NCBI GenBank assembly: GCA_022707425.1
Contig: JAKJAQ010000002.1
Coordinates: 29,868-93,867, forward strand
Length of the DNA: 64,000 bases
DNA from: Candidatus Babelota bacterium
Lineage (GTDB): Bacteria; Babelota; Babeliae; Babelales; JACPOV01
Direction of reading: 5' to 3'
Position 1 is the first letter of the stretch, and each line of letters starts with the position of its first letter. Both the position numbers and the translations under genes were made by a program. Below the pieces are notes generated by a model. The model searched no databases. It saw only the letters and a list, made by a program, of their open reading frames with translations, and was not told where the DNA came from. Positions 15,763 through 62,720 of this stretch are shown one piece after another.

Positions 15763-15874
15763 AGCTGTCCCCAAAGAAATAATATATGAATTAATAAATC
15801 TCTATACTAGAGAATGATATCCGCATTAATTTGTCAATTAGAAATGCACTATCTTAATAATAAATAAGATAGAG

Positions 15875-17335: not shown

Positions 17336-17433
17336 CCTTCTTATTTCTTTAGGAAAAACTAGGCATTTTTTTTTAATTCATATACCTTATCTGCATCATA
17401 AAAAAAGTTATGATTCAACAACAGGGAAGTACA

Positions 17434-19344: not shown

Positions 19345-19359
19345 AGCGAGAGGCTTTTT

Positions 19360-21765: not shown

Positions 21766-23641
21766 ATAAACGTGTATTGGTGTGTAACATCACCATATTG
21801 TTTTTATCACACGCTTCAATAATTTGTTGATCACGAACACTGCCACCTGGTTGTGCAATATAGCGCGCACCAAATTGTGCTGCCTTTTCAACATTATCTT
21901 CAAACGGGAAAAAGCCATCTGAAGAAACTGCAATGTTGCTCAGGTGTGCATAGGTTTTCAAAAATTCATTTTTTTCATTTTCAGTTAATGGTAAAACATG
22001 TAAAGGCGCAAACTGCGATCCTTTGACTAAAAGATGGTCAATATTTGTTCCATTAATAAAGTCGTTAATTGCATTGTTTCGATCTGGACGTTTGAGCGTT
22101 GCGTTAAAACATAATTGTTGGACTTTTGGATGATGACGCAAAATAAATTGCGCAGCCTTTTTTCCTGCAAGTTCCACACAATCAACTCTATTTTGCTGCC
22201 CTGCGCCAACACCGATTACTTGTAATGGTGTAGCATAGACCACAGAATTAGATTGCGTATATTTGGCGGCAATGCTCGCGAGTAATAATGCTTGTTTGGC
22301 TTCTTTTGGTAGGTATCGGTTTTTGGTAGTAACAACGTTTTTTTCACTTACTAAATCATGCGTGAGTTCACCTGAATTTGGTTGTTGTGTGAGTGCAACG
22401 CCAAATAGTTCACGAATTTCAAGATTATTATTGTTGCAATATGCTGGATCGACCTCAATAATTGAATAATTCCCTTCTTTTTTTGATTTGAGAATTTCTA
22501 ACGCTTCTGGTTCATAACCTGGCGCGATTATGCCATCACTCACTTCACGTTTGATCAATTGCGCAGTTTCCTGATCAACTTTATGACTGCATGCAATAAA
22601 ATCACCGAAAGAAGATTTTGGGTCTCCGTTGCGTGCTCGCAAAAAAGCGGTTGCTACAGCGGTCACTTCTCCGTCACTTTTCACATCGTATGCCGCCATT
22701 TCAGGATATGAAAGTGATGGCTCACCAATTCCAACACCAGCAGGTGATACGTGTTTATACGACGCGCAACACACAGTATTAAGATTTTCGCGTACTTCTT
22801 TTACTAACTGCCAACCAGTGATTGCATCAAGTAAATTAACATACCCAGGATTACCATTGAGAATCTTGAATGGATTGGTGCCACCATTAATTGCGTATAA
22901 TCCCGCATTTTTTTGATATGGGTTAAGACCATATTTTAAATTTTGTCCCAGATTATATTCTCTATAAAGAGTTTTGCCCGCTGAAAAAAAGTTTGCAATT
23001 GCAGCGTCGTAACGAGCGGTATGCTTAAAAGCTTTTAATGCAAAAAGTTGTTTTTGTTTTAAATCAAAAGATTCATTTTTTTCGAGAATTTGTTGGAATT
23101 TTTCATAATCTGCAGGATCTGAAATTACGATCACGTGTTGAAAATTTTTTGCAGCTGCCCGCAGTAATGTGACACCGCCAATATCAATATTCTCAACTGC
23201 GATATCCATCGATGCATTTTCTTTTTTTATTGCTTCCTCAAATGGATATAAATTGACAACCACAACATCGATCGCCGGAATGTCAAGTTGATCTAATTCT
23301 TGTTGATGTGTCGGCAAATTGCGATTAGCAAGAATTGCACCATGAATTTTTGGATGCAATGTTTTAACGCGCCCATCTAAAATTTCTGGAAATCCGGTTA
23401 AATCAGAAATTTTCAACAATTTTCGTTTTTCCCATTGAGATAAATTTTCTTCTAGAGAGCTGTAGGTACCTCCGGTAGAAATTATCGTATAGTTATTTTT
23501 AATGAGAGATTGAGCCAAAGGTAAAATGCCGTTCTTTTGAGAAACACTCAGTAATGCATATTTTTCTCTTTGCGTCTCTGATTCCATACAAAAACCATTG
23601 AGAGAAAAAAAAGAAATTAATAGCAGAAGTCTTTTCTTCAT
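21755..23641 (-). CDS. purH: bifunctional AICAR transformylase / IMP cyclohydrolase (ATIC-like long form) with signal-like leader
   Basis: AGGAG lies 6 nt upstream of the ATG at 23641. Leader MKKRLLLLISFFSLNGFC is followed by MESE. The MGS domain has ALLSVSQKNG and GRVKTLHP. The AICARFT domain has KHVSPAG, YTQSNSV, GAGQQNRV and FFPF. Confidence 0.9.
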   Translation of the reverse strand: MKKRLLLLISFFSLNGFCMESETQREKYALLSVSQKNGILPLAQSLIKNNYTIISTGGTYSSLEENLSQWEKRKLLKISDLTGFPEILDGRVKTLHPKIHGAILANRNLPTHQQELDQLDIPAIDVVVVNLYPFEEAIKKENASMDIAVENIDIGGVTLLRAAAKNFQHVIVISDPADYEKFQQILEKNESFDLKQKQLFALKAFKHTARYDAAIANFFSAGKTLYREYNLGQNLKYGLNPYQKNAGLYAINGGTNPFKILNGNPGYVNLLDAITGWQLVKEVRENLNTVCCASYKHVSPAGVGIGEPSLSYPEMAAYDVKSDGEVTAVATAFLRARNGDPKSSFGDFIACSHKVDQETAQLIKREVSDGIIAPGYEPEALEILKSKKEGNYSIIEVDPAYCNNNNLEIRELFGVALTQQPNSGELTHDLVSEKNVVTTKNRYLPKEAKQALLLASIAAKYTQSNSVVYATPLQVIGVGAGQQNRVDCVELAGKKAAQFILRHHPKVQQLCFNATLKRPDRNNAINDFINGTNIDHLLVKGSQFAPLHVLPLTENEKNEFLKTYAHLSNIAVSSDGFFPFEDNVEKAAQFGARYIAQPGGSVRDQQIIEACDKNNMVMLHTNTRLFTH

Positions 23642-23678
23642 ATCTGCTCCTTTATTGTGGTTAAAAAAAAATTAAATA

Positions 23679-24632
23679 TTACGCGCGTTTTACTAATTGT
23701 GTCATCCATTGTGGGAAAAAACCTGAAAATATTTTTTTATTTTCAGTCGAAGTGTTAAATAGTTCATCTTGATAAAAAAGAAATAACCCAACCATAACGG
23801 CAATTCCCGAAACGTAATAATGCCACGTAATGAGTTCATTAAAAAATAACCAACCATACACGGCAGTAAAAAGTGGACTTAAAAAATCGGTAAATGAAAG
23901 AAATGTCGCCGAATAGTGTTTGAGTAAATGAATGTAAAAATTATGGCACATAATATTACTCACGATAATTAGAATCGCCAACCACCAGCAAAACGTCACT
24001 GGTGATTGCACGATCAATGACCCTTCAACCATAAAAGCGGTAACCAGTGCAAGCAAACCACCACCAAACATGCGAATTCCATTGGTCATGCCCGCAGAAT
24101 AATTATTATCGCGCACTAATTTTCTCATCACAATAATACTGTAAGTGTGACTCGCAACGGCAAATAAAATTGCACACTCGGGCCACGAAAGAACCAATAA
24201 TTCTCCCATCAGTTTTTCTGCTGGTGAAGAAAGTAACAGCAAGGGAACAATGCCAAGAAAACCAAGAATCAATCCGCCCCATTGTTTTTTTGATAAGAGT
24301 TCATTAAATGCAAAATACGAAAATAATGCGGCAAAAAAAGGAGAGATATTAAGTAAAAATGACATTTTGGCAGCAGACATGTGCATCAACCCCCAATTGC
24401 GCAACACATATTTTAAATAGACGCCAAAAAAAATAATTTGCACATAATACCACCAATGTTTTTTATCTAAAGTAAAATGAGTTTTTTGAATGCGATTATA
24501 TGCAAGCAAGATCACTCCTGCCAAACTCATGCGGATCCCCGTAAGCCAAATAGGGCTAACCATTGAAAGCAAAAATTTACTCATCGGAATAGATGAACCA
24601 AATAATGCATGCAACAAAATAATTTGTAACAC
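23679..24632 (-). CDS. DMT superfamily (EamA-like) transporter
   Basis: 317 aa with about 10 TM segments in two EamA-like halves. It lies between purQ and purH on the same strand, with a 37-nt gap to purH. Confidence 0.75.
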   Translation of the reverse strand: MLQIILLHALFGSSIPMSKFLLSMVSPIWLTGIRMSLAGVILLAYNRIQKTHFTLDKKHWWYYVQIIFFGVYLKYVLRNWGLMHMSAAKMSFLLNISPFFAALFSYFAFNELLSKKQWGGLILGFLGIVPLLLLSSPAEKLMGELLVLSWPECAILFAVASHTYSIIVMRKLVRDNNYSAGMTNGIRMFGGGLLALVTAFMVEGSLIVQSPVTFCWWLAILIIVSNIMCHNFYIHLLKHYSATFLSFTDFLSPLFTAVYGWLFFNELITWHYYVSGIAVMVGLFLFYQDELFNTSTENKKIFSGFFPQWMTQLVKRA

Positions 24633-24651
24633 GTTTCTCCTTTTTTACTCG

Positions 24652-25410
24652 TTAGCTCATATATGAAATTGCATTTGAAAAAATGGTAATGCCTGCTGGT
24701 TCTTGTTCTTGAAATGGCGATTGATACTCATAAATAAATCGTTCCGGATGTGGCATAAGACCAAATATGCGACCAGTTGAATCACATACTCCCGCAATTG
24801 CATGTAATGAACCATTTGGATTATCGGGATAGTGATCGGTTGCAACACCTTCCGGGCTTGCATACCGTGCAACTACTAACTGATCGCTTTCGAGTTGATC
24901 CATAACTGATTGCGTGGCAAAAAATTTTCCTTCGCCGTGTGCGACGGGAATTTTAATTTGTTTTCCCACAAGTCCACGCATAAAAATACATTCGCTTGGT
25001 TCAATAATAAGTGAAATCCAACGACATTCAAATTTTCCCGAATTGTTATGCAGCAATGTTGCATGCTGTTCTTTCTTTTGTGGATACGGCAAGAGACCTG
25101 CGCGAACTAACACTTGAAATCCGTTACAAATACCAATAATTAATTTTGACTGCGCAATAAAATCATGCAGTTGATCAGACAAAAAGTTCATGAGTTCGAG
25201 TGCAAATAGTTTACCGCTTGCGATATCATCGCCATACGAAAAACCGCCGGGAATAACTAATATTTCAAATGAACTGAGTTTTTTTTCACCCGAGCGCAAT
25301 TGATTAAGTAACACTATTTGTGCATCTGCTCCTACTTTTTCAAATGAATGAACCGTTTCATTATCACAATTAGTTCCATCAGTTTTTAAAATGCACACAC
25401 GTGGCTTCAT
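24652..25410 (-). CDS. purQ: FGAM synthase glutaminase subunit
   Basis: MKPRVCILKTDGTNCD, nucleophile region GICNGFQ, and HPER near the C-terminus. The ATG at 25410 overlaps the purL TGA (ATGA), so the longer ORF start at 25443 is rejected. Confidence 0.9.
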   Translation of the reverse strand: MKPRVCILKTDGTNCDNETVHSFEKVGADAQIVLLNQLRSGEKKLSSFEILVIPGGFSYGDDIASGKLFALELMNFLSDQLHDFIAQSKLIIGICNGFQVLVRAGLLPYPQKKEQHATLLHNNSGKFECRWISLIIEPSECIFMRGLVGKQIKIPVAHGEGKFFATQSVMDQLESDQLVVARYASPEGVATDHYPDNPNGSLHAIAGVCDSTGRIFGLMPHPERFIYEYQSPFQEQEPAGITIFSNAISYMS

Positions 25411-28253
25411 ACACAAAAAACCTCCTTCATTGGTTTTTGCCATGCATCAAATAATTCTTGTATTTCAACATCAAAAAGCAGCGCGTCATTTCGTTGAACC
25501 ACTATTCTTTTCTCCGCTTGCGTTCGACCAAGTACTTTGTGATCGATCGTGTTAAAAAAATTATTTTTGTAATTTTCTTGTGTTACTTCAATAATAAAAC
25601 ATCCTGCTGTTTCGTTAAAAAGCAACCAATCGGAACGTGCACCAGCAATTGCACCAATATCAATCACCGCACCTCGCTGACCGCCAAAACACATTTCTGC
25701 TAACGTAACTGCAATACCACCCTCACTTACATCGTGGCACGCAAGAATTTTTTGTTGTTGGCATAACGCATACAGTTGTTCAAATAATTGTTTCTTTTGT
25801 CGCAAATCAATAGTGGGAACTCGATCAGTGTTAATCTTGAGAATTTGTTCGTACACAGATCCACCCATTGCTTCAACATCCAAATTACCAATGAGCAAAA
25901 GTAATGAATCATTTTTTTTCAATTGTGTTGTCATTCGTTTTGAAACATCAGGAATTTTACCAAAAACAGAAATACACAATACTGGTGGGATTTCCAAAAT
26001 TTCGCCATGTGGATAGTTATAGGTGCTTGAAAGACTGTCTTTGCCTGAAATAAATGGCAATCCAAACGCGTTCATCGCGTCAATGCACGCTTGCATTGAG
26101 CGATCGAGCGCCCATAATTTTTCAGGGGTCGGTTTTGGCCAAATAAAATTATCGATCAACGCCGCATCATGTACATTTCCACCAACGGCAACTAAATTTG
26201 CAAGCGCTTCAGTAATGGCCCATACACTTCCAGCATAAGGATCAATGGTATTAAGAATTGGATTTAATCCATGACTAATTATTAATCCATACGGCTTTCC
26301 ATACAACGGTACTAAAAGCGCTGCATTTTGCGGTGCTGACTGATTGTTACCGCTATACGGTGGTAAAGCATTCATCGCTTGCACTGAGTGATCATACTGA
26401 CGAGCGATTGGTTCTTTTGAACAAATATTTCCATGCTGCAAAATTGCACAAAAAATTGATCGCCATTCATCAAGGGTTGCTGGTGCATTATATATTTGTT
26501 GTTCTCTTATTTTTTGTACGGGCGAACGCGCAGCAAGTGGCAATAACGGTTGTTCTTCAAACAAAAAATGTGTTTCTAGATCAACCACGCATTCATTTTC
26601 ATGCATCACCGTAATTCGTTTATTGTTAGTAAAGTAGCCAATATCGGCTGCAAGAACATTATAAAGTTGGCAAATCTCGTTAAACGTTTGAACATGTTCA
26701 GGCGCAATTGCACAAATCATTCGTTCTTGTGATTCCGATATCCAAATTTCCCACGGCGAAAGACCCAGATATTTAAGCGGCACTTTTTCTAATTGAACGA
26801 GTACGCCCAAATCAGCGCCCATTTCACCAATCGCTGATGAAAAGCCACCCGCACCACAATCGGTGATTGCTTGAATTACATCTGCATTTCTTGCAGCAAG
26901 TAATGCATCTGCCATTCGTTTTTGTTCGATTGCATTTCCAATTTGCACGGCAGTTGCGTTAACACTGATCGTTTCATGCGTCATCGCGTCACTTGAAAAG
27001 GTGGCACCGTGAATGCCATCTCTTCCCGTTTTGCCCCCAAGAACAAAAATACGATCATACTCTCGCGGTTTACCTTTTTTACATTGTGCTTCGGGGATTA
27101 AACCATAGGCACCCACAATCACCGTTGGCTTTGCACGAAAATCAGGATGAAAATGAAACGAACCATTATTAGTAGGAATGCCCATTCGGTTACCATAATC
27201 ACGCACACCCGCAACAACATTTCTCATTAAATAGTCAGGGTGCAAACAACCAAGTGGTATTTCGCTCTGTTTCATGGTTGGTTGAGCAAAACAAAAAATA
27301 TCGGTTGATGCAATTACTTGTGCACCAAGTCCAGTGCCCATGATATCGCGAAAAACACCGCCGCTGCCGGTTGCAGCGCCACCATATGGTTCGATTGCGC
27401 TGGGACTATTATGAGTTTCAACTTTTCCCGCAATTGCCCAGCCATCGTAGAAACTAAACACGCCGCCATTATCTACAAATGCTGATAATACGTTTTTTTG
27501 GTAGTTGAGTGCTGTATTTTTAAGACGTGAAAATAATGAAGATTTTTTTTGTCCATCAACAATGATCGGTGACCGAAATGTTTTGTGACTACAATGTTCA
27601 GACCATGTTTGTGCGATCGTTTCTAATTCTGCATCACGCGGGTCGCGCAGTTGTTTTTTGAAATAATCACGAATTACTGTTAATTCAGAATCATTTAAAT
27701 ACAGCTGATTGTTGCGCGCATATTCTTTAAGTTCAACATCGCTCATTGTACTTACTGCAATTGTTGCGCTTGCGGTCGGGGTACCTTCAATCATCAGATT
27801 GAGCGGCTTTTCAATTACTAATTGATTCACCGTTTTATTAATAAGTAATTTATCAAGCACAAGTGACAATTCTTGTTGATCGAAATCACCAAAAAAGTAA
27901 TATTCTCGACTGACATCAACAGCTCGTATCGCATTAATCCCAAACGTATGAACTGTTTTGAATAACGATTCAACTTCCGGATTCATCACACCCGGTTTAT
28001 TGCCAATTTCAATAACTTTTTGTGCATTCAATGCTAATGATTGATTATTAATTGAGACTTCATCAAGCGGATCAACAAGAATTTTTGCTGCAATATAGGT
28101 TGCCGTTGATTCATCAATTCCTTGGAAACGATAAATTTTTGCCGTACGAATTGCATTAATTGAATGTATACCAAGTGTACGTTTAATTTCAGACAATAAT
28201 GCGTTGGCATGAATATCAGTTGATTTCGTTGCAACTCGTATTTCTTGAATCAT
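25407..28253 (-). CDS. purL: FGAM synthase synthetase subunit with N-terminal PurS-like / lgPurL N-domain
   Basis: About 948 aa. Motifs are TWSEHCSHKTF, ETHNHPSAIEPYGGAATG-like (VETHNSPSAIEPYGGAATGSGG) and DCGAGG. The extra N-terminal ~170 aa resemble PurS or the large-PurL N-domain. SD GAAGGAG lies 7 nt upstream of the ATG; a GTG one codon further upstream is also possible. Confidence 0.9.
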   Translation of the reverse strand: MIQEIRVATKSTDIHANALLSEIKRTLGIHSINAIRTAKIYRFQGIDESTATYIAAKILVDPLDEVSINNQSLALNAQKVIEIGNKPGVMNPEVESLFKTVHTFGINAIRAVDVSREYYFFGDFDQQELSLVLDKLLINKTVNQLVIEKPLNLMIEGTPTASATIAVSTMSDVELKEYARNNQLYLNDSELTVIRDYFKKQLRDPRDAELETIAQTWSEHCSHKTFRSPIIVDGQKKSSLFSRLKNTALNYQKNVLSAFVDNGGVFSFYDGWAIAGKVETHNSPSAIEPYGGAATGSGGVFRDIMGTGLGAQVIASTDIFCFAQPTMKQSEIPLGCLHPDYLMRNVVAGVRDYGNRMGIPTNNGSFHFHPDFRAKPTVIVGAYGLIPEAQCKKGKPREYDRIFVLGGKTGRDGIHGATFSSDAMTHETISVNATAVQIGNAIEQKRMADALLAARNADVIQAITDCGAGGFSSAIGEMGADLGVLVQLEKVPLKYLGLSPWEIWISESQERMICAIAPEHVQTFNEICQLYNVLAADIGYFTNNKRITVMHENECVVDLETHFLFEEQPLLPLAARSPVQKIREQQIYNAPATLDEWRSIFCAILQHGNICSKEPIARQYDHSVQAMNALPPYSGNNQSAPQNAALLVPLYGKPYGLIISHGLNPILNTIDPYAGSVWAITEALANLVAVGGNVHDAALIDNFIWPKPTPEKLWALDRSMQACIDAMNAFGLPFISGKDSLSSTYNYPHGEILEIPPVLCISVFGKIPDVSKRMTTQLKKNDSLLLLIGNLDVEAMGGSVYEQILKINTDRVPTIDLRQKKQLFEQLYALCQQQKILACHDVSEGGIAVTLAEMCFGGQRGAVIDIGAIAGARSDWLLFNETAGCFIIEVTQENYKNNFFNTIDHKVLGRTQAEKRIVVQRNDALLFDVEIQELFDAWQKPMKEVFCV

Positions 28254-28271
28254 CACTCTGCTCCTTCAATT

Positions 28272-28305
28272 TTGACAAAGATCAGAAATGTATTAAGATT
28301 TCTGA
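28272..28305 (+). promoter_or_regulatory. candidate purT promoter (TTGACA-16-TAAGAT) overlapped by an 8-bp inverted repeat
   Basis: TTGACA at 28272..28277 and TAAGAT at 28294..28299. The inverted repeat TCAGAAAT-N8-ATTTCTGA spans 28282..28305. A possible divergent -10 (TAATAC on the minus strand) lies in the repeat spacer. Confidence 0.35.
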
Positions 28306-28366
28306 CTTCAAAGCCAAGGTTACTCAAAAAAATAAAGAGATCAATAAACTTTGAAAGGAGAATATA

Positions 28367-29602
28367 GTGAAGTTACTGTTCATAAGTTGTATTTTCTCAT
28401 TTTGTTTATCACTGAATGCAAACGTATCAATTGGTTCGCCTCTCACGCCATCAGCAACGAAAGTATTGCTCTGCGGCGGTGGCGAATTAGGCAAAGAACT
28501 AGTTATTGAATTGCAGCGATTTGGTGTGGAAGTTATTGTTCTTGATCGATATGATAATGCACCGGCAATGCAAGTTGCACACCGCAGCCATACACTTTCA
28601 ATGCTCGATGGAAATGCATTACGCACCATTATTGAATTGGAACAACCAAACATTATTGTTCCTGAAATTGAAGCGATCGATACACAAACATTGTTAGAAC
28701 TTGAAAGCGAAGGATACACGGTCATTCCAACTGCTCGCGCTGTGCATATTACTATGAACCGTGAACGCATTCGCCAACTTGCACACGATCTTCAATTAAA
28801 AACATCAGCATTTAAATTTGCACATTCGTATGATGAATACCTATCTGCAGTCGACAAACTTGGTTTTCCTTGCGTTGTAAAACCAACGATGAGTTCTTCA
28901 GGAAAAGGCCAATCAATTATTCACAACAAACATGAAATTGATCCTGCATGGAACTTTGCACAAACTGGCGGTCGCGCGCAAACAAACAGCGTCATTGTTG
29001 AAGAATTTATTCCGTTTGATTACGAAATTACGCTGCTCACCGTGCGTGATGCGCAGGGAAACACTCATTTTTGTGAACCGATTGGCCACAAACAAATCGA
29101 CGGCGATTATCGCTCTTCATGGCAACCACAACCAATGAGCAACAATTTATTAGATCAGGCAAAGAATTATGCAAAAACAATTACTGACGCTCTGGGTGGC
29201 CGCGGCATTTTCGGCGTTGAATTATTTGTAAAGGGTGATGAAATTTATTTCAATGAAGTTTCTCCACGCCCGCATGATACCGGGATGGTTACGCTTATTT
29301 CACAAAATAGTTCTGAGTTTGGATTGCACGCACGCGCATTACTTGGTTTACCAATTGGTACCATTAAACACTATGGACCGAGCGCATCATGCGCAGTTCT
29401 TGTACACGGTAATTCAGAAAATGTTCAATTTTCAAATCTTGATACTGCACTATCTATTCCAGATTCGCAGCTGCGCTTATTTGGAAAACCAAATGTTCAT
29501 GGGCAACGCCGCATGGGTGTTGTTCTTGCACAAGGTGAAACCATCGAACAAGCGTTAGAACGAGCGCAAATAGTGGCGAGCAGATTATCAATTTCACTTT
29601 AA
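28367..29602 (+). CDS. purT: formate-dependent GAR transformylase (ATP-grasp) with signal-like leader
   Basis: AAAGGAG lies 7 nt upstream of the GTG at 28367. The ~21-aa hydrophobic extension (V)[20 protein letters not shown] precedes [23 protein letters not shown]. This segment and [16 protein letters not shown] match E. coli PurT as I recall it. Confidence 0.9.
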
Positions 29603-29615
29603 AAAAGGGAAAAAT

Positions 29616-30929
29616 ATGTTGATTACGTTTATTTTAGCTTCATTGTGCAATTTTTTATGCATTAATGCCGATCAAATTGCAGAAGGCAAAACGAAAATAA
29701 TTCGTCGGTATGCAGCTGACCAAACAAAAGTAATTATTGAATCAAAAGATGACATTACCTCAGGCGATGGGTACAAAAAACATGATATAATGCGCGGTAA
29801 AAGTGCACTTGCAAATCAAACAACATGCAATGTGTTTCGTTTACTTAAACAATGCAATATACCAGTTGCATTTGATGAGCAAATTGATCACAATAAATTT
29901 TTAGCACCCCAGTGCACTATGATTCAGTTGGAAGTTGTCGTGCGGCGCGCTGCACACGGCTCATGCTTAAAACGTTATCCACATCTGCGTAAGGCTGATG
30001 TTTTTCCACAACTCATCGTTGAATTTTTTCTTAAAACAAGTGGTAGACAATGGCAAGGAAGTCCAATCCCAAAAGATGATCCATTCATGATTATCAACAA
30101 TAATAAAGCGGATCTTTATCTACCCGATGCACCATTGCATTCACAACAACCGTTCTTAACGCTTGATACCTTTCCCTGCGATCAGCAACCAGAACTGTAT
30201 GATCACATGGCGCTTATTGCAAAAAAAACATTTCTTATTCTAGAAAAAGCGTGGCAACTGCAAGGTGGCCAGTTAGTTGATTTTAAAGTTGAATTTGGTA
30301 TCGATGCACACGGCAATTTATTGCTTGCTGATGTTATCGACAACGATTCATGGCGTGTTTTAAAAAATGAAAACTATATCGACAAACAATTTTATCGCGA
30401 TGGTGGTGAGTTAGATGCGGTAACAAAATTGTATGAACAAGTACAATCGCTAACCGCACGTTTTTCATTGCCAACGCAACAATTAATTATTTGGCGTGGA
30501 TCGGAAAAAGATGTCGTAGAACCGTTGCTTGAACAATGGAAATCGGCTCTTTCATGGCTTGATGTAAAAATTGTAACGATTTCGATGCATAAAGAACCGG
30601 TCAAAGGATATCAAGAATTGCAAAAAGCTCTGCAAGAAATTCCCAATTCAGTTATTGTTGCATTCATTGGGCGCAGTAATGGTGCGGGACCAACATTGGC
30701 AGCACAATGCACGGTGCCCGTAATTACCGTACCGGTAAATTGGCAACAATTTCCTGAAGATGTGTGGTCATCATTGCGCGCACCAAGTGATGTTCCTGTC
30801 CTTACCATTCTTGAACCCAATAATGCACTATTGGCTGCATTACAAATATTGGCAATGAACAACCCAGCATTGTATGCACAATTGAGAATGAATCAAGAAA
30901 AACGATTAATCAATACTTCGATTAATTAA
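29616..30929 (+). CDS. purC-purE: bifunctional SAICAR synthetase / class II AIR carboxylase (PAICS-like fusion)
   Basis: 437 aa. [39 protein letters not shown] and [12 protein letters not shown] form the PurC half. GRSNGAGP and [10 protein letters not shown] form the class II PurE half. SD AAGGGA. The N-terminus [18 protein letters not shown] is hydrophobic. Confidence 0.9.
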   Translation: [437 protein letters not shown]

Positions 30930-53549: not shown

Positions 53550-56500
53550 TTAACCAATCCACTGTTGTGCTGGTGCAATTATATTTTGCGCTTCATCAGA
53601 AATACTTTTCAATAATAGTTGGAAAGCATCAGCCGAAATTCCACCAAGATAATCTTGCATATACAGTTTACCAAACGCATCGTAACACAGTTTATTCATC
53701 CACACACCTAATGCCCGGTACGCGATTAAACGGCTTGATGCATCTCCTGCTGTTGTAATTTGTTGTTTAAAATAGTTAAATGCGTCGTTCATCGATTTTT
53801 CAAAATTATCACTCATAAACCACTTAACAACATCGTCAACTGTATCAAATGAAATACCTACTTGTTGCATATAATTAGTTACCATGGTTGTTGCTGCTTG
53901 AGAAATAGGATCTGGTAAGCTGTTATCAGAAGACGTTTGCTGAGTACTTGCTTGATCTGAACCTGCTAATTGCCCTGCTGCTAATGATCCACCCATATAA
54001 TAAATGAGCGCATCTAAGAAATTTTCTTTTAAATCTTTTGCTTTTTGTTGTTCAACCGGATCACCCATTCCAGCGCGCGCAATTAAATCGGGCAATGCAA
54101 TTGATTCTTGTTGACCATTGCTGAGTGTCAGTAAAATTGGTCCAACACGCGCCGCTCTATATTGTATAACATTATTGGTTGACCCTTGATAATAACTATT
54201 CAGCCATTTGAGCGCCGCTTGGTCAAACAATTTTTCATCCATCGGCGACAGTGATTTATAGGCACCAACTCCAAAAGAATAATAATTTGCTGCTGCAAAA
54301 TAATTTTTTAGATTGCTTAACAAATCACCTGCTTGCATAAAAAATGCTGCCGATTTTGAAATCAATGAATTATATAAAGCTGTTTTAGGGCCATAAGTTG
54401 CTGCAGCTGTTACATAATCATTTTTTACATCCATTAATATGCCGCCATAGGTACCCTGGCTGCCCCAAAAATATTCAACAGCACGGGGATCACCAACGAG
54501 AAACAATTGTGCTGCGTCGCCAAGTAATTGATATAAATCTCCACTTATAACGGTTGTCAATGCATTAACCTTTTGCGTATCATTCAACTGTGAATAGAAA
54601 TTGGATGCTAAACTATAATAAATCATAATCACGTTCTGAATATAATTTTGTATTAAATTATAGGTATTCATAAATGATGATAATTGAACCGAAAAATCTG
54701 TTTTATCAATTTTTTGTAATTTTTGAATATCATCACGCGCAGTTTTGAGTGCGTTCGTTTCATCAGCACTCATAAGTCGATCAATTTGTGTAATATCACC
54801 ACCGTTGAGTAAAAAATCGATTCGTTTTTTGTAACGAGCTGCAGCACTTATATGAGATTGTGCGGTTAAATTAATAATTTGATTGTAACGATCCGGGTCA
54901 TTTCCCGATACGTAGGTATATGCTGCTGTAGGAATTGTTGTAACTGATGGATCTGACAATTTTTGTGCCCATCCATAATAAAATTGAGTTGTAGGATATG
55001 CTAAATAAGGAAGTTGTGTCATTGCCATGCCTGGAATTGGAACATCAGGAATAGGTTTATACAATTCATACAAATTAAAAACAGCTTGACCATAATTATT
55101 AATGCGCTGTTGCAAACGGAGCGACGATTGTTGGCTTGTAATGCGTGCTTTTAAATCTTGCATGTATAAATAGGCGCGCACTAATATATTTTGTACCGTG
55201 TTTGTTTGATCAGGGGTTAAGCTAAATGTGTCGCGCACTTGAACACCATTAAACACAGCGCTGTAATCAATTCCTTGATCTTTCAACGCATTGTTAACAT
55301 AGAGCAAGAATGCATAGGTAGCTAATAGGTCGTTCAATTTATCAGGCGCCATTTGCGCGATATCATCCGCCGTAAATGTGAGCGGAACATAGCTGGGAAT
55401 TTCTTGTACATAGCTATACAATTCATACCGCTCAGGTACCGCAATCCCAGCGACCGTAATGGTAGCGATATTATGAGAATCTTTTGCGCTTGGTATTATC
55501 AAATTAACATATGCGTCTACTAAACTTCGTGTGTATGCTAGTTGCAATTGTGCATTTACCTGTGCTGAAATATCGGCTGCTCCAATTTTGTCATAATATT
55601 GTTTTGCTAATTTGTATGAGCTCGTGGCGTTCGCATAATCTTTTTTTGCAAAATAAAAATCACCAAGACTTTTGTAGGTGCGTGCAAAGATAGTATCAGG
55701 ATCGGTCGTTGCAAATGTTATGAGGGGTGTTTGATTTTTTTGTCCTATGCTTATGGTTACCACCGTCGATTGTGGATCAGTTTTCTTTTGAAAAATTGAA
55801 AATGCTGCCGGATCAATGCCTGGTGCTAATTCTGATGCAATCGATTGCGCATCAGAAATTAACTGATCAAATCGATTCATCATAGCAACAAGCATTGCTT
55901 GATTATTCGGTGCATCAGTTATTAATGATGCATTGCCCACCTTTTGTTGTAGTACTGTTAATGCATCAAAAAACAGTTTAAGATCATCCTGTATAATTTT
56001 CAACACAGCACTACTATTTGCCTGATCATTTGCAGCAACGTCAAGCACATATAATCGATAGGCTATGGTAGCTGCACCAACTGATGGGAAAAATGCATCC
56101 GGTACATTTTGTTTATATGCTGACTGATATTCCTGTACAACACGTATATAATTCTGCAATGCCTGAGCCGAACCAAGTCGATACGCAGTCAAATAAGATT
56201 GTAATACATCTTTCCAGGCATTATCTGCAATGCTGCTATAGAGCGTTGCTTTAGGATCAATCGCTACCCATAAATCATTGGTTAATCGCAATGCAGCATC
56301 TTCTTTTTCTTGTGCATCTTTTAATAATTTTTGGATCTGATCTTGTGCCGATGAAAAATCAGCAATTTGTTTTGTTAATAAATCTTGAATCGGTTTGGAC
56401 AAATAGGGCGTTCTTCCTGAAAGTGCTGCCGAATAATAAAGGGACGCTGTAACAATATCAGTACTCAATCCTGCCGCGGTTTCTATTAAAAGACGAGCAA

Positions 56501-58589
56501 TGTGCCGTTGAATAAGCGTCGTAAAATTCCATTTTTGATCAGACAATAATAATTGATTGAGTTGATCGTTTGCAAATAATGATGGATATACCGGCACTAA
56601 AATAGTAAGCGCTTTGGTAGTTGCAAAAGCATCATCTATAGAACCAAAAGCTGCCAACGCTTGAGGATAATAATTATTCAACGCATTATTGAGACTATCA
56701 CTTGATGCACCGCGGACTATCTGATCACCACCAGCAAGTGCCGATTGACCTTTGATAATACTCGTTAAAACAGTCACAGCCGCTTGCAAATCAGCAACAG
56801 AACTATTCATTTCTTGATATTTTTGTATAGCAACCGTGTATTTATCAATTGATTGTTGTGCACGTTTTGCAAATTCTTGCAGCCATGCTTCGAATGTACT
56901 CAATTGTCCTGTTTGATCATCAGTGCTGCTAATGTGTGCCATGTATGCTTGAATTGGCGTTATATATTGTTGTGCAAAATTAACTAATATTGAAACACCA
57001 TCTTTTTTATTTTGTTCTGCTTGAAGAGCAGTAACTTTTTTATTCAAATCTTGCGCATCGATTGTGTCATTTGCTTGTGCAAAATTTTGCAGAGCTTGCA
57101 AATAAGCAGCAATTGCTTGTTCATAATTACTTTGTTGTTCAGCTACGCCGCCTTGCGTGCGCAATTTTGCAGCGGCTGCAAGTAAATCGTGCAAAGTTTG
57201 ATATTGTTGTGCATTCGCCGGATCAGGAGCCTGCGTAAAATAAGACGCAGCTTGCGCATAAGCATTAATAACTTGATTCAAAATTGGTGAATTATCTTTT
57301 CCTGAAATCATACTCTGCAACAATACCTTAGCTCGTGCAACGACCACCAAAGCATAGTTTGTATTTATTAATTTTTTGAGCGTCGGCAGTAAATTGGCAT
57401 CAACCAACGGAAAATTCGTGCCAATTTCATAATAAAAAGCAGCAGCATACCGCACATGTGATTCGGTCGGTGATTGAACATTGACTACAATATCTTGAAG
57501 TGCGTTAATAAATTCTTGCATGCTCATCTGTTTTCTACTTGCCGCAAAGCCATTTACAATGAGCTGTTGCTGATTGGGAAAAAAATCGGTAGCAATCGAA
57601 CTAATTTCTGCTTGAAATCCTGACGCAATAACTAAAGCACCACCACCTTTACCGATTCCGTTCAATTGCTGAGATAATAGATACAATGTTTTGTAATAAT
57701 CCTCTTTCTTTTTTTGCAAGAATAACTTCTTTGCTTTATTAAGTGATAGCGCAACGATCGTTAAATAAAATTGCGCAAGTTCTTTTACTGCTAAACCAAG
57801 CGCATTTGCTTTGTCAGTAAAATCAACTGGCATTCCTGCTGCTTGATAGGCACTAGCAAGAGAACCGATTGCTAATCTGTAGGCTAATGTCACCGCACTA
57901 ATTGTTTTATTTGCTACAGTTCCCTGCAACGCAAACTCTTCTTTTGCAGCCCGCACCTTTGTGCGCGCATCAGTTAATAACGGTCCGGCTTTGACAATTC
58001 CTTGTACTAGCACCACCATTTTTTTTCTGTAATCATCTTGCGCTTGTTGTTGCTGAGCTGTAATAACCTTCTGGGCACTTTGTGAACGTTTAATAGGACC
58101 AGTTTGCTGATCAACAGCAGTTTGCACTGCAACCAATACCCCTGCTACTTCACGATTCATTTGAGTAATTATCGAACCGAGTGAAATATTTGTTTGATTG
58201 AGAATTGCCTTAAGCTTACTCGATGCTGCTGCGGTGGTTATTGTTTTGTTAGTAACTTGGTTGATGATATCTTGAATTTGATTTTTGGTTCGGAGCGATA
58301 AGGTTGAAATATTCGTTTGAGCATTGGTCGTTGACCCATCAACCGTTTTTTGTAAACCGGTTATTTGGTCAATTAATTTTTTTTGATCATCTCCCGATAA
58401 CAACAACGCATCGGTATTCATTGCAGAAATTTGAGTATTCCATTTATCTTTATAATTACTAACTGTACTATTATTCTGCGAAGCGAGCGTATCGAGTTGC
58501 GTAAAAAAGTCGGACAGATTAGATGCCTGTTGAGCGAATCCTGTTACACCTAACATAAAAAATGGGATAATTCCCCACATAATCTTCAT
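53550..58589 (-). CDS. giant (1679 aa) Q/A/N/Y-rich, predicted helical protein with signal-like leader
   Basis: Uninterrupted 5 kb ORF. GAGGG lies 5 nt upstream of the ATG. Leader MKIMWGIIPFFMLGVTGFA|QQ. Almost no Cys. One TPR-like stretch (YKSLGDFYFAKKDYANATSSYKLAKQYY). Confidence 0.8.
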   Translation of the reverse strand: MKIMWGIIPFFMLGVTGFAQQASNLSDFFTQLDTLASQNNSTVSNYKDKWNTQISAMNTDALLLSGDDQKKLIDQITGLQKTVDGSTTNAQTNISTLSLRTKNQIQDIINQVTNKTITTAAASSKLKAILNQTNISLGSIITQMNREVAGVLVAVQTAVDQQTGPIKRSQSAQKVITAQQQQAQDDYRKKMVVLVQGIVKAGPLLTDARTKVRAAKEEFALQGTVANKTISAVTLAYRLAIGSLASAYQAAGMPVDFTDKANALGLAVKELAQFYLTIVALSLNKAKKLFLQKKKEDYYKTLYLLSQQLNGIGKGGGALVIASGFQAEISSIATDFFPNQQQLIVNGFAASRKQMSMQEFINALQDIVVNVQSPTESHVRYAAAFYYEIGTNFPLVDANLLPTLKKLINTNYALVVVARAKVLLQSMISGKDNSPILNQVINAYAQAASYFTQAPDPANAQQYQTLHDLLAAAAKLRTQGGVAEQQSNYEQAIAAYLQALQNFAQANDTIDAQDLNKKVTALQAEQNKKDGVSILVNFAQQYITPIQAYMAHISSTDDQTGQLSTFEAWLQEFAKRAQQSIDKYTVAIQKYQEMNSSVADLQAAVTVLTSIIKGQSALAGGDQIVRGASSDSLNNALNNYYPQALAAFGSIDDAFATTKALTILVPVYPSLFANDQLNQLLLSDQKWNFTTLIQRHIARLLIETAAGLSTDIVTASLYYSAALSGRTPYLSKPIQDLLTKQIADFSSAQDQIQKLLKDAQEKEDAALRLTNDLWVAIDPKATLYSSIADNAWKDVLQSYLTAYRLGSAQALQNYIRVVQEYQSAYKQNVPDAFFPSVGAATIAYRLYVLDVAANDQANSSAVLKIIQDDLKLFFDALTVLQQKVGNASLITDAPNNQAMLVAMMNRFDQLISDAQSIASELAPGIDPAAFSIFQKKTDPQSTVVTISIGQKNQTPLITFATTDPDTIFARTYKSLGDFYFAKKDYANATSSYKLAKQYYDKIGAADISAQVNAQLQLAYTRSLVDAYVNLIIPSAKDSHNIATITVAGIAVPERYELYSYVQEIPSYVPLTFTADDIAQMAPDKLNDLLATYAFLLYVNNALKDQGIDYSAVFNGVQVRDTFSLTPDQTNTVQNILVRAYLYMQDLKARITSQQSSLRLQQRINNYGQAVFNLYELYKPIPDVPIPGMAMTQLPYLAYPTTQFYYGWAQKLSDPSVTTIPTAAYTYVSGNDPDRYNQIINLTAQSHISAAARYKKRIDFLLNGGDITQIDRLMSADETNALKTARDDIQKLQKIDKTDFSVQLSSFMNTYNLIQNYIQNVIMIYYSLASNFYSQLNDTQKVNALTTVISGDLYQLLGDAAQLFLVGDPRAVEYFWGSQGTYGGILMDVKNDYVTAAATYGPKTALYNSLISKSAAFFMQAGDLLSNLKNYFAAANYYSFGVGAYKSLSPMDEKLFDQAALKWLNSYYQGSTNNVIQYRAARVGPILLTLSNGQQESIALPDLIARAGMGDPVEQQKAKDLKENFLDALIYYMGGSLAAGQLAGSDQASTQQTSSDNSLPDPISQAATTMVTNYMQQVGISFDTVDDVVKWFMSDNFEKSMNDAFNYFKQQITTAGDASSRLIAYRALGVWMNKLCYDAFGKLYMQDYLGGISADAFQLLLKSISDEAQNIIAPAQQWIG

Positions 58590-58834: not shown

Positions 58835-59200
58835 ATGAATATTTATGTTGGAAATATTGGACGCGACGTAACAGAAGAAATGCTCAAAAACCTTTTTGGT
58901 CAATTTGGGGAAGTTACATCTGTCAAATTAATTAAAGATAAATTTACTGGTGCTGCTCGTGGATTTGCATTTGTTGAAATGGCTTCAGCTACTGAAGCAC
59001 AACAAGCAATCGAACAATTGAATGGCCATAACCTTGGCGGACAATCACTCCGTGTTAACGAAGCTCGTCCGATGGAACAACGCCCTCGCCGTGACTCACG
59101 TATGGGTGGCGGTAGCAGTGGTGGCAGACCTTTCGGTAGCCGTCCTCGCTCATCATATTCAAATGGTGGTGGAAGCAACCGTGGTGGTTGGAATAGCTAA
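58835..59200 (+). CDS. RRM-type RNA-binding protein with Gly/Arg/Ser-rich tail
   Basis: RNP-2 IYVGNI, RNP-1 RGFAFVEM, and C-terminal GGGSSGGRPFGSRPRSS..GGGSNRGGW. Confidence 0.85.
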   Translation: MNIYVGNIGRDVTEEMLKNLFGQFGEVTSVKLIKDKFTGAARGFAFVEMASATEAQQAIEQLNGHNLGGQSLRVNEARPMEQRPRRDSRMGGGSSGGRPFGSRPRSSYSNGGGSNRGGWNS

Positions 59201-59228
59201 TCGCTAACCAGCTCTCTGAAATTAAAAA

Positions 59229-59265
59229 AGCGGCGCATGATAAATTCATGCGCCGCTTTATCTTT
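59229..59265. terminator. bidirectional rho-independent terminator
   Basis: 12-bp GC-rich stem AGCGGCGCATGA / TCATGCGCCGCT with loop TAAAT, an A-run before and a T-rich tract after. It lies between convergent genes. Confidence 0.7.
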
Positions 59266-59281
59266 TCTTACTGATTAATCT

Positions 59282-60814
59282 TTATTTTCTTCGTTGTAAA
59301 AATAGAAGAACTACTGCTGCACCTAACAATCCAGCCACAAAAAATCCTACTAATTTTTTTAAATCGAAACTACCTGGTTGAGTATTCACCATTTCCGAGC
59401 CGTTCTTCTGGAATTTCTCATATTTGTCCATCACACGGTTAACGCAGGTATCGACAATCGAATCACTCACGGTTCCTTGTACTGAACAATCTGCATCGGT
59501 TTTAATCATATTAATAATACCCTCAAGATCACCATTTGATAGACCGGCTGTTTTTTGAACTATTTGCTCTATTTTAGCATCGGTCAGTATCTGATGCACA
59601 CTGGCAATAAACGATTCACTATTGTGAACTTTATCACCAAGAATCGTGTCCCGGTAAGCATGCAACACTAATCTACGTTGTTTTTGCCCAGGTAATGGCA
59701 GCTCAACAAGATCATCAATTCGACGCTGCATTGCTTGATCAATAACCCCAAGTCGGTTAGTTGCCAACACGATCATAAATCTATCACTTCGTGTTCCGGT
59801 ATGATTAAGAAAATTGGTAAAAATTCGATAAGCATCACTGTCCGGTTTAAGATCGTTACGCTCAGAAAGCAATGACTCTGCTTCATCGATAAATAAAATC
59901 AACCCTTTACTCTTCTTTGCCCATTCAAACAGTTCATCCATAGCTTCCATTGCCCCTTGCTTTGAAAATGAAGCTCCACTTGCCATAGCAAAAGACATTC
60001 CGGTTCGCTCAGCTAACTGTTGTGCAAACAACGTCTTACCAGTTCCTGGTGGACCATAGAGTAAAAGATTTCTATATTTAACCGCTCTATTTTTTTCTTT
60101 AATTTTTTGATTAATGGTTTTAGTAGCTTGAACAATGCCATCTAGCCGCTTTTGCAGTTCTTCATCAAAGATCATGACCGGTTCAAGCATCTTATTCTTT
60201 TTGCGATCTTTAGCATTACCAGCAATGCCTTTTTTTGAAAAAGTAATAAGAATTTTAGGCTTAAATATTTTTTTCTCGATCCAGTTCCATAATAATTTAG
60301 AACCATACCAAACGGTTGCTGCACCAAAAGTACCAAAAATGGTAGTGAGAGCTGCACTCATTCCAACCTTACCTGTAGCTTTTGCTATTGATTTACCGAC
60401 ACTGTCAACATAGGTATTGGTTGTTTGCGCTGCATTGACTGCTGCACGTCTAGCTTCACTATTGGAAGCAAGTGAATCAGCAACTGCACCAAAGGCTGTA
60501 TCCATCGCTCGGCGTCCTTCACCCTCTTTATTAAATTGGTCACCAATACTTCTAAATACTTTTCCTACACCGCGATAAGCATGCCCATCTTTGCTGAATT
60601 CTTCATCAAATGCTTTGGAAGCACCGGTAACTATACCACCTGCACCTTTTTCTAATCCTTCAGCAACACCGGTTGCAATACCTTTGCCCATGCCCTCTGA
60701 AATTTTTTCAACAACTGGATCCAACGCTTCTAAACCTTGAATAACCACATCTTCAGCACAAATCGAGTGAAATAACATTAATGATAAAGCAATAACTGCT
60801 TTTTTGTGAGACAT
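59282..60814 (-). CDS. membrane-associated AAA+ ATPase, ATAD3-like
   Basis: Leader [20 protein letters not shown], an internal TM segment and a C-terminal TM segment. Walker A [22 protein letters not shown], Walker B [9 protein letters not shown]. The pre-AAA segment and Walker region parallel eukaryotic ATAD3 as I recall it. Confidence 0.8.
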   Translation of the reverse strand: [510 protein letters not shown]

Positions 60815-60977
60815 GAATAAAACCCCCATTTAAATAGCTCATTTATTGCTGCTTAATAACAGCTAAAAATTCACCTATACAACATAAGTGTAATTAATTT
60901 AAAAATCGGGTCAATTTGAAATATGCCCAAAACAAAGGGTTTTTTGGCAATAATGGCAGATAATAATTCACATAGAA

Positions 60978-62720
60978 TTATTTCTTGAACTGATCATCGT
61001 ATAAGTGTTGTATTTCGTTGACTGAAGTGGCTTGAACAGCCTGTTTATCCGGTCGATATCCCATAAAACGGGGGAAACGTAACGCATACCCCAGGTTTTT
61101 TTCAGTTTTACCGGCACTATGAAGTGGTGACAGGGTAATCTCATCAGCACGCACCATGCACACGATTTCTGGGCTTACCCATACATCAGGAACCAATTCT
61201 TTGGCACAAATCACATTTTTCGGTTGTGCCATCACATGAATTTTGTCGCATTTATGCTTAAGCTCTTTCCATTCTTCATCTTTTAAACCAGTACCGATCT
61301 TTGCAACTGTTTGAAAAGCATCGAGGTCTTTATTGTAAACCCCCACTAAAAATGCACCCATGCCAAATGAAACACGTTTTCCTGAACCGCTGTAATATCC
61401 CAAAATTACGCAATCAATGGTGTCTTCCAAATGCCCTTCTTCGTGCCGTTTTAATTTAATCCAATTAAAATTACGTTTTCCTGGTTGATAAATAGCATCC
61501 GGTTTTTTTACTACTAATCCTTCAAGGCCTTGATCAATATTTTCTAAAAAATAGTCTTCCAATTCTTTTGCTGAATGGAGTTTTTTTTCACCAATCACCT
61601 GAATCGATTCATTTTTAATAGATTTGCTGAGCGAAAGTAATTTTGTGCGCCTTTCTTCATGTGATTTCGTTAAATATTCTTGTCCATCTACATATAAGAG
61701 ATCAAATAAAAATACACGCAATGGATATTCTGTGATTGCTTCCTCAATCCCATGTTTTCGTTTGCGTTTGACCGTTTCTTGAAATGGTAAAAAGGTGCCA
61801 GTATGTTGATCAAATGAAATTGCTTCGCCCTCACAAATCATGTTTTTTACAGGCAAATGACTGAGTGCTTCAACCAAATCTGGAAACATGTAAGACATAT
61901 CGATCAAATTACGCGAGAAAAATTCGATTCGTGGTTTTTTATGCGTGTTATCAATGTGAATTTGCAAACGAAAACCATCCAACTTCGGTTGTGCAACACA
62001 ATCTCCAATTTTTTCAATAATTGCTTTTGGCGTTGACAGCCGTTCAGCAGCTGCGGGACGAATCGGAATACCAACTTCAATTTTCATATCTTTCAACGCC
62101 TGAATACCGCGCTCTTTGAGCAATTGTCCAATATACCCAATATCAACACATTTATTATAAGCATCTTCAATTACCGTATGCAGTGACTTGTTGCCTGTTT
62201 CCATCCATGAATAAGCGTCGATAATGGTCATGTCAGAAAAACCAAGCCGTAACGTTCCCAAAATAATTCTGATAATAAATTTAGCTTCTAAAGGCGTTAC
62301 GTTTTTCAATAATTTCAAGGCGAGGTCAGCTTTCTCTTCTTGAGAACCTTTTCCACTTACGTGCTCAAAATCACACAACGCTTGATAAACTTGCAAGACG
62401 GACAATTCTTTTTCCGGTTTCCATTTACCATATTCGGCAACAACTAAACCCAAATCGCCCAATTTTTTTGTGTGAGCTGCCACTTCTTTTTCAGATTGAT
62501 CAATTAAATTGGCAACAACACCAATTAAATTTTTCTCAGCAAAATTAAATTGCGTACCTTTATACGGGGGGCGGAGCATACCAAGAGAAAGATTGCTCAA
62601 GATTGATATTTCGTGTGGACTTGCATTCTTAAACAACTGTGCAAGAATTTTAGTGATTTCGATACGAGAACTCGTTGTTTCTAATTGTTGAAATTCTTGG
62701 GCTACTGCTGCAAAATGCAT
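60978..62720 (-). CDS. ATP-dependent DNA ligase (Lig1/archaeal type with N-terminal DNA-binding domain)
   Basis: Motif I AQPKLDGFRLQIH, motif III EGEAI, motif IIIa LFDLLYVDG, motif IV EGLVVK, motif V NWIKLK. 580 aa. Confidence 0.85.
   Translation of the reverse strand: MHFAAVAQEFQQLETTSSRIEITKILAQLFKNASPHEISILSNLSLGMLRPPYKGTQFNFAEKNLIGVVANLIDQSEKEVAAHTKKLGDLGLVVAEYGKWKPEKELSVLQVYQALCDFEHVSGKGSQEEKADLALKLLKNVTPLEAKFIIRIILGTLRLGFSDMTIIDAYSWMETGNKSLHTVIEDAYNKCVDIGYIGQLLKERGIQALKDMKIEVGIPIRPAAAERLSTPKAIIEKIGDCVAQPKLDGFRLQIHIDNTHKKPRIEFFSRNLIDMSYMFPDLVEALSHLPVKNMICEGEAISFDQHTGTFLPFQETVKRKRKHGIEEAITEYPLRVFLFDLLYVDGQEYLTKSHEERRTKLLSLSKSIKNESIQVIGEKKLHSAKELEDYFLENIDQGLEGLVVKKPDAIYQPGKRNFNWIKLKRHEEGHLEDTIDCVILGYYSGSGKRVSFGMGAFLVGVYNKDLDAFQTVAKIGTGLKDEEWKELKHKCDKIHVMAQPKNVICAKELVPDVWVSPEIVCMVRADEITLSPLHSAGKTEKNLGYALRFPRFMGYRPDKQAVQATSVNEIQHLYDDQFKK

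Follow-up and report, generated by a model that had tools for sequence, protein, structure and literature searches.

The AAA gene and the parts of its product

The stretch analysed here, 64,000 nucleotides (nt) from the genome of a Candidatus Babelota bacterium (assembly GCA_022707425.1, contig JAKJAQ010000002.1, positions 29,868 to 93,867; below called the window), carries on its reverse strand, at 59282..60829, a complete open reading frame (ORF) of 515 amino acids (aa), stop codon included in the span, for a predicted membrane-anchored AAA+ ATPase. Its close relatives belong to Candidatus Dependentiae, which are obligate intracellular symbionts or parasites of protists. An original prediction, made from the sequence of the window alone, had noted a likeness of this protein to ATAD3, a membrane protein of eukaryotic mitochondria. 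The protein strings quoted there were all found in the ORF, the one given as a transmembrane (TM) segment at residues 158-176.

The upper coordinate given in that prediction, 60814, corresponds to Met6 of the ORF. This codon is probably the true start, since it is preceded by a GGGGG run at a distance of 9-13 nt and the orthologue P0004 (76% identical) begins at the equivalent MSQKK; the product would then be shortened to 510 aa. A 98%-identical copy of the gene is carried, in identical gene order, by assembly GCA_041907565.1 (locus L001), and the dN/dS ratio of 0.19 between the two orthologues points to purifying selection. By these measures the gene is real, intact and conserved.

The N-terminal half of the product had been described as rich in Gly and Ala and as preceded by a leader, and both features hold. 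Hydropathy was computed on the Kyte-Doolittle (KD) scale in 19-residue windows. A Sec-type, signal-like leader (residues 6-25, 60755..60814; KD maximum 1.9-2.8, with the scan segment at residues 11-31 reaching 1.9) is followed by EDV and a putative cleavage site; it is retained in the orthologues P0002-P0004 (73-76% identical), and a Sec-like leader is present in 127 of 153 Dependentiae members of the family. The variable N-domain that follows (residues 26-154, 60368..60754) is all-helical and predicted to lie outside the cytoplasmic membrane; Gly and Ala make up 29% of its residues (26-155) versus 14% of the AAA part, and an AlphaFold2 (AF2) model of it consists of helices predicted with low confidence. 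Residues 1-250 have no Pfam match even at E<=10, and the N-domain is therefore not ATAD3_N; nor does it align with ATAD3 in hhalign. A weak match of residues 31-138 (approximately 60416-60739) to the PADLOC profile of ZorA, a MotA/ExbB/TolQ-like protein (20.7 bits, E 5e-5), probably reflects helical low-complexity similarity.

The N-domain is separated from the ATPase by a membrane helix (residues 155-177, 60299..60367), as had been proposed; with a KD of only 1.4 this helix is best called moderately hydrophobic. A basic juxtamembrane linker and pre-AAA helix follow (residues 178-250, 60080..60298), with a motif matching that of ATAD3, IERSLGKPPLVRETSR, and with P191 and S198 invariant or nearly so across the family. 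The alpha/beta core of classical AAA type (residues 251-378, 59696..60079) coincides with the single Pfam domain of the protein (PF00004, residues 255-378, 86 bits, E 4.5e-24). It contains Walker A GPPGTGKT (residues 259-266, 60032-60055), Walker B ILFIDE (residues 310-316, 59882-59902), N358 as sensor-1, and the arginines R369/R370 (59720-59725); of these, GPPGTGKT, D315/E316, N358 and R370 do not vary within the family. Judged from these residues, the catalytic motifs (Walker A, Walker B, sensor-1 Asn and Arg finger) are intact. The AF2 model exceeds a pLDDT (predicted local distance difference test) of 90 over residues 220-480, and Foldseek matched it to classical AAA structures with probability 1.0. 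The core is followed by the lid subdomain and a C-terminal helical extension (residues 379-481, 59387..59695), which aligns to the ATAD3 C-terminus and shares with it an insertion of approximately 16 aa. The protein ends in a TM anchor (residues 493-511, 59297..59353), flanked by KK and by QRRK, after which comes the stop codon. This terminal anchor, also proposed in the original prediction, is clear in the query (KD 2.75, within residues 488-514) and fails as a family trait, since it was found in just 5 of 153 members (P0001-P0004 and P0007); other close relatives have aromatic amphipathic tails in its place.

Affinity to eukaryotic ATAD3 and bacterial relatives

In a search of 5.8 billion proteins, some 96 single-AAA matches ranked first, and every taxon name among them was Dependentiae, Babeliales or Chromulinivorax. 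The next-ranked single-AAA matches were ATAD3A/B proteins bearing PF12037, such as P0097 (164 bits, 32% identity, 66% coverage); two-domain CDC48 proteins attained approximately 130 bits, and only through the sum of both domains. Scored per domain with phmmer, the query matched ATAD3 at 124-165 bits, in alignments running from the TM helix to the C-terminus, versus at most 75 bits, restricted to the core, for CDC48 D1 and D2. In the reverse direction, ATAD3 queries scored family members at 145-177 bits versus at most 79 bits for CDC48-like and multi-AAA proteins. Among AAA domains in the PDB the query reached approximately 55 bits with p97 D1/D2 and at most 73 bits with any single-domain chain, the matches listed including Msp1, Rpt and other proteasome ATPases, AFG2, Rix7 and NVL, all at or below about 73 bits. 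ATAD3 queries gave similar values there (VAT domain 57 bits, Msp1 69, Rpt 66): by sequence, ATAD3 is without a close homologue among solved structures, and PDB sequence and Foldseek searches returned generic classical AAA proteins only, with no ATAD3 entry. The best 150 matches of a search of 1.84 billion representatives were bacterial family members or multi-AAA proteins, the latter ranked high by summed score and including proteins of 1000-2100 aa with 4-6 tandem AAA domains (P0144, P0146, P0153 and others), and no ATAD3 was among them; diverse ATAD3 sequences were obtained through a search with a query of the Babela type described below.

Direct alignment extends the likeness well beyond the ATPase core. 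BLASTP of the query against the ATAD3 protein P0103 (E 4e-44, query residues 102-478) aligned TM helix to TM helix and linker to IERSLGKPPLVRETSR, and continued to the ATAD3 C-terminus; identity with ATAD3 is 30-32% over approximately 320-400 residues, and hhalign of the family against ATAD3 gave a probability of 100% (E 1.1e-51, query residues 158-469). The distance from the TM helix to Walker A has a median of 101 aa in the Dependentiae family, in the chlamydial group and in ATAD3 alike. Alignment against FtsH, PAN and CDC48 revealed derived characters common only to the query family and ATAD3, i.e. loss of the aromatic K[YFW]xG pore loop 1, an 'LF.WA' motif, a TG motif ('fLnhTG' replacing 'LLtemDG'), the loss of 2 residues from the second region of homology (SRH), and the insertion before the lid, which is absent from FtsH, PAN and CDC48. 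On these alignments the homology with ATAD3 spans the TM helix, the juxtamembrane linker (KPxL..E(S/T)S), the AAA core and the C-terminal helices, and the query is very probably a member of the ATAD3 clade, with one AAA+ domain of classical type. The differences lie at the two ends. Instead of ATAD3_N (PF12037, with the coiled coils CC1 and CC2), which was sought with Pfam, a local hidden Markov model and hhalign in the query, in family members with a long N-terminus and in Babela proteins and was absent from all of them, the query has a Sec leader of the cleavable type and its Gly/Ala-rich N-domain; at the other end it has an additional TM segment.

The query family is bacterial and rich in paralogs. 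It counts 277 representatives at E<=1e-30, and its single-domain members fall into more than 110 clusters at 50% identity. Tandem copies occur (locus L006), the N-domains are hypervariable and without a Pfam match, and ankyrin-repeat genes adjoin the family member at locus L002. Synteny is kept only in the near-identical genome GCA_041907565.1, and no partner gene was found at the loci examined. One tandem paralog (P0011, L006 6476-7957) seems to be without a leader; its called start is probably wrong, since translation from an in-frame GTG located 69 nt before it gives the protein a signal-like N-terminus, MQISNKNCISVFLLLSMLSQSVS.

Taxon-named non-eukaryotic matches all come from Dependentiae or Chlamydiae, with the exception of one metagenome-assembled genome (MAG) labelled Verrucomicrobia, and beyond the query family they fall into two further groups. 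The chlamydial family (e.g. MBX9924679.1, P0109), of Rhabdochlamydiaceae, Chlamydiales MAGs and the Verrucomicrobia-labelled MAG, numbers at least 120 clusters (P0109, P0271-P0389). It shares with the query the ATAD3-like clade (100% bootstrap), the TM to Walker A spacing, the linker and the TG motifs, and differs in forming a lineage of its own (98.5% bootstrap), in keeping a Y-I pair in pore loop 1, in mostly being without a Sec leader (present in 10 of 104 members), and in that some members (17 of 104) show a further, strongly hydrophobic segment ahead of the conserved TM helix, possibly a bilobed Inc-like anchor. Several of its members are deposited as 'FtsH' or 'FtsH 3'.

The other group, from the same phylum as the query, comprises approximately 90 clusters of Dependentiae proteins of Babela type (P0390, P0398; in the annotation of Babela massiliensis, expanded family '2 - CDC48-like AAA ATPase', cluster 26), with the same succession of leader, helical N-region, TM helix, linker and AAA domain. 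It is nevertheless a separate lineage, matched by the query at only 108 bits and with an opposite charge bias around its TM helix, and it is nearer to ATAD3 than the query family is (41% identity to P0098; hhalign E 1.5e-54). Some of its members are JGI-labelled 'ATAD3A/B', unlike any of the query family. The relevant Babela proteins were located by motif search; Babela_gene_810 and 811 ('HflB') proved to be of another AAA type and were set aside as relatives.

Neighbour-joining (NJ) trees were computed from 238-241 columns with 200 bootstraps for three data sets, with FtsH, PAN and CDC48 as outgroups, the loci of which came from a profile scan of genome contigs with the family alignment. In all three data sets ATAD3 and the ATAD3-like groups (those of the trees being the Dependentiae, chlamydial and Babela-type families) came together against the outgroups with 100% bootstrap. 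The best homologues of the query thus form a Dependentiae-specific clade with reciprocal affinity to ATAD3, and not a generic bacterial AAA clade, so that the proposed likeness is borne out from both directions of search as well as by the trees. Fourteen diverse eukaryotic ATAD3 sequences (from oomycetes, green algae, alveolate-type organisms and others) were monophyletic at 97.5%, with all bacterial sequences outside; the query family is therefore placed by these trees as a sister lineage of eukaryotic ATAD3; it is not orthologous to it and was not recently acquired from any of the eukaryotes sampled.

No single branching order among the four lineages emerges from these trees: under the lineage labels used there, F+X received 57-64%, K+ATAD3 66% and then 0% in the next tree, and B+K+ATAD3 38%. 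The bacterial lineages were monophyletic to the exclusion of ATAD3 in 0 of 200 NJ replicates, and distances between them (1.5-1.7) are larger than among eukaryotic ATAD3 sequences (0.76). Both observations make a position of ATAD3 nested among the bacterial lineages compatible with the data. It is tempting to speculate, as an unlikely scenario, that ATAD3 did not originate in eukaryotes and descended from, or was very early exchanged with, an ancient envelope-anchored AAA+ family of obligate intracellular bacteria of the Dependentiae/Chlamydiae lineages.

We found no paper on bacterial relatives of ATAD3, and none joining ATAD3 with Dependentiae or with chlamydial proteins. ATAD3 has been listed from animals, plants, algae and protists and as absent from yeast and fungi, with bacteria unmentioned (PMC3790746; PMC13249166). 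The 2015 description of Babela massiliensis reported expanded AAA families, and its annotation table contains 'CDC48-like AAA ATPase' proteins with a signal peptide, whose best RefSeq matches, at approximately 200 bits, are from Ostreococcus and Medicago (PMC4378268). Those 'CDC48-like' proteins are the ones closest to ATAD3 in the present comparison. The relation is thus latent in annotation tables, namely that of Babela and the JGI labels, though undescribed in the papers found.

Three large bacterial lineages keep the whole module of TM helix, linker, AAA domain and C-terminal helices; the finding concerns a whole family and not this window alone. ATAD3, a protein of the mitochondrial inner membrane, is essential in animals and in Plasmodium, and is mutated in human mitochondrial disease. 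The existence of these lineages reopens the question of its origin and of the direction of gene flow between early eukaryotes and intracellular bacteria, and the compact bacterial proteins, which are without the long coiled coil, would be tractable targets for a first structure or mechanism from the ATAD3 clade.

Proposed topology and function, and alternatives

Opinion is evenly balanced on the most likely function, that of an inner-membrane AAA+ scaffold or remodeller with the topology of ATAD3 and a cytoplasmic ATPase. The leader would export the N-domain to the periplasm, and helix 155-177 would act as a stop-transfer segment, giving a type I topology in which the ATPase is kept in the bacterial cytoplasm, where it is placed because ATP is available there. 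This arrangement would equal that of ATAD3, in which the intermembrane space contains the N-terminal coiled coils and the ATPase is on the matrix side (PMC10419812). The positive charges (K+R) flanking the TM helix are consistent with it, with 3.0 on the AAA side versus 2.1 on the other in the family, compared to 2.9 versus 1.9 in ATAD3. The protein would probably form a ring oligomer on the inner side of the cytoplasmic membrane, where the C-terminal TM segment would provide a second point of attachment in the query's sub-lineage, and ATP hydrolysis would serve to organise or remodel the envelope membrane and its protein assemblies in the manner of an ATAD3-type scaffold. A role as a processive threading unfoldase would be less likely, because the canonical aromatic motif of pore loop 1 is missing, as it is in ATAD3.

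Several observations weigh against this proposal. The internal helix is of modest hydropathy, and the query's own flanking charges are balanced (3 versus 3). With an outer N-terminus and an inner C-terminal part, the terminal TM segment would leave QRRK, a strongly basic tail, on the non-cytoplasmic side. The scarcity of leaders among chlamydial members means that the model of a periplasmic N-domain cannot hold throughout the superfamily. The multiplicity of clusters, the tandem copies, the hypervariable N-domains, the lack of kept synteny and the ankyrin-repeat neighbours in one genome form a pattern more in keeping with factors of host interaction than with a housekeeping protein of the envelope. 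The near-confinement of taxon-named bacterial relatives to Dependentiae and Chlamydiae is likewise typical of eukaryote-like effector families. As to the placement itself, the trees are NJ only and have FtsH, PAN and CDC48 as outgroups, without Msp1 and without several eukaryotic AAA clades (BCS1, katanin, Pex and Yme1), although none of the PDB matches listed exceeded about 73 bits.

Part of the same evidence would suit a doubtful yet serious alternative, in which the protein is a mimic of ATAD3 delivered to the host; a host-directed mimic and a bacterial membrane remodeller were also the two functions considered in the original prediction. It would be exported by the Sec pathway, carried onward by outer-membrane vesicles or another route, and inserted into host mitochondrial or endoplasmic reticulum membranes by its TM or tail anchor, there to copy or disturb ATAD3-dependent membrane organisation, for instance by recruiting or reshaping mitochondria around the bacterium. 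The C-terminal TM segment of the query with its short basic tail may resemble a eukaryotic tail-anchor signal. Apart from the Verrucomicrobia-labelled MAG, the taxon-named bacterial relatives are obligate intracellular organisms, and the nearest outgroup is a eukaryotic organelle protein; the paralog-rich, variable and non-syntenic character of the family, with its tandem copies and the ankyrin-repeat neighbours at L002, also speaks for delivery, and the mostly leaderless chlamydial relatives resemble type III secretion substrates in this respect. In Chromulinavorax, a member of the Dependentiae, the host mitochondrion wraps around the bacterium, and 44% of coding sequences carry signal peptides, read by the authors as marking membrane or secreted proteins (PMC6561590). 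A member of the query family (P0056) comes from Chromulinivorax. The authors of the Babela genome similarly proposed that proteins with signal peptides are secreted into the amoeba (PMC4378268). Against delivery to the host, a hydrophobic helix after a cleavable leader is the classic mark of type I proteins that stay in the inner membrane, the helix and linker in question are homologous to ATAD3's own membrane anchor, no secretion-system or chaperone gene adjoins the AAA gene, and the C-terminal anchor is restricted to the few members named above. Proteins of this family are candidate factors for the mitochondrial remodelling in Dependentiae infections.

The inner-membrane scaffold with ATAD3 topology is preferred far more strongly over a generic bacterial AAA protein, either FtsH-like without the protease or CDC48/SpoVK-like, with no special relation to ATAD3, which is very unlikely. 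Such a reading has public annotation on its side: a member of the same 90% cluster as the query is deposited as 'ATP-dependent zinc metalloprotease FtsH 3' [Candidatus Dependentiae bacterium] (OQA34432.1), the Babela relatives are filed under COG0464 as 'CDC48-like AAA ATPase', and Pfam recognises PF00004 and nothing else. The NCBIfam models are nevertheless reached at a small fraction of their cutoffs (FtsH 65 bits versus 600, CDC48 59 versus 803, PAN 78 versus 500), and ATAD3 scores about twice as high as any other AAA domain, in alignments that reach past the core, with which the unanimous bootstrap grouping agrees. FtsH and Msp1/ATAD1 do share with the query the classical AAA fold and a membrane anchor N-terminal to the ATPase; the query differs in being without the M41 zinc-metalloprotease domain, the canonical aromatic pore loop and the RPGRFD motif, and in scoring just 65-73 bits. 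The 'FtsH 3' annotation is wrong, given the missing protease domain and the NCBIfam score. An identity as CDC48/p97 was rejected as well, the query having one Walker A, one AAA domain and no N-domain of that type, together with the low NCBIfam score. Both public annotations, 'FtsH 3' and 'CDC48-like', are corrected by the present comparison. Least probable of all is an anti-phage defence ATPase of IetA/IteA type, to which the PADLOC IetA (83 bits) and NCBIfam IteA_antiphage (72 bits) models point, since the latter score compares with an equivalog cutoff of 510, the matches are confined to the generic AAA region, no IetS-like serine-protease partner adjoins the query or its relatives at the loci examined, and neither the membrane architecture nor the ATAD3 affinity is a feature of IetA.

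Gene neighbourhood and other features of the window

The AAA gene lies at the end of the series PgsA-PlsY-DNA ligase-AAA, followed by genes for an RNA recognition motif (RRM) protein and a 1679-aa protein, and the same neighbourhood is found in GCA_041907565.1. The gene directly upstream (60978-62720, reverse strand) encodes an ATP-dependent DNA ligase of eukaryotic/archaeal type, complete in its three domains (PF04675, PF01068 and PF04679), on one strand with PlsY and PgsA. Within the 148-nt gap upstream of the AAA gene, a promoter-like site (TTGACC-16-TACACT, 60887..60914, reverse strand) may be present; the evidence for it is weak, as the region has no more sites of this kind than expected from shuffling. 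Downstream, an RRM_1 RNA-binding protein with a Gly/Arg/Ser-rich tail is encoded convergently (58835-59200, forward strand), and between the two genes lies a bidirectional, terminator-like hairpin (59227..59259) with a 14-bp stem, 8 GC pairs and T-runs on both strands. The 1679-aa ORF (53550-58589, reverse strand), two genes downstream of the AAA gene and past the RRM gene, starts with a signal-like sequence and matched nothing in Pfam at 1e-5; this arrangement is kept only in the near-identical genome.

A de novo purine cluster occupies 17410-30929 of the window, with a PurF-like gene, a PurM-PurD fusion, PurH and FGAM synthase, in contrast to Chromulinavorax, which has been described as without detectable complete metabolic pathways. 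The hydrophobic stretches at the start of the longest ORFs for PurH and PurM-PurD are probably artefacts of the start codon chosen, as internal Met19 and Met11 agree with the canonical starts of these enzymes; the 35 residues ahead of the catalytic Cys of the PurF-like protein are without explanation. As signal-like N-termini on purine enzymes are probably artefacts, leaders were trusted only where conserved. Many further ORFs of the window begin with signal-like leaders, among them that of a eukaryote-like WD40 beta-propeller protein (14293-15774, reverse strand).

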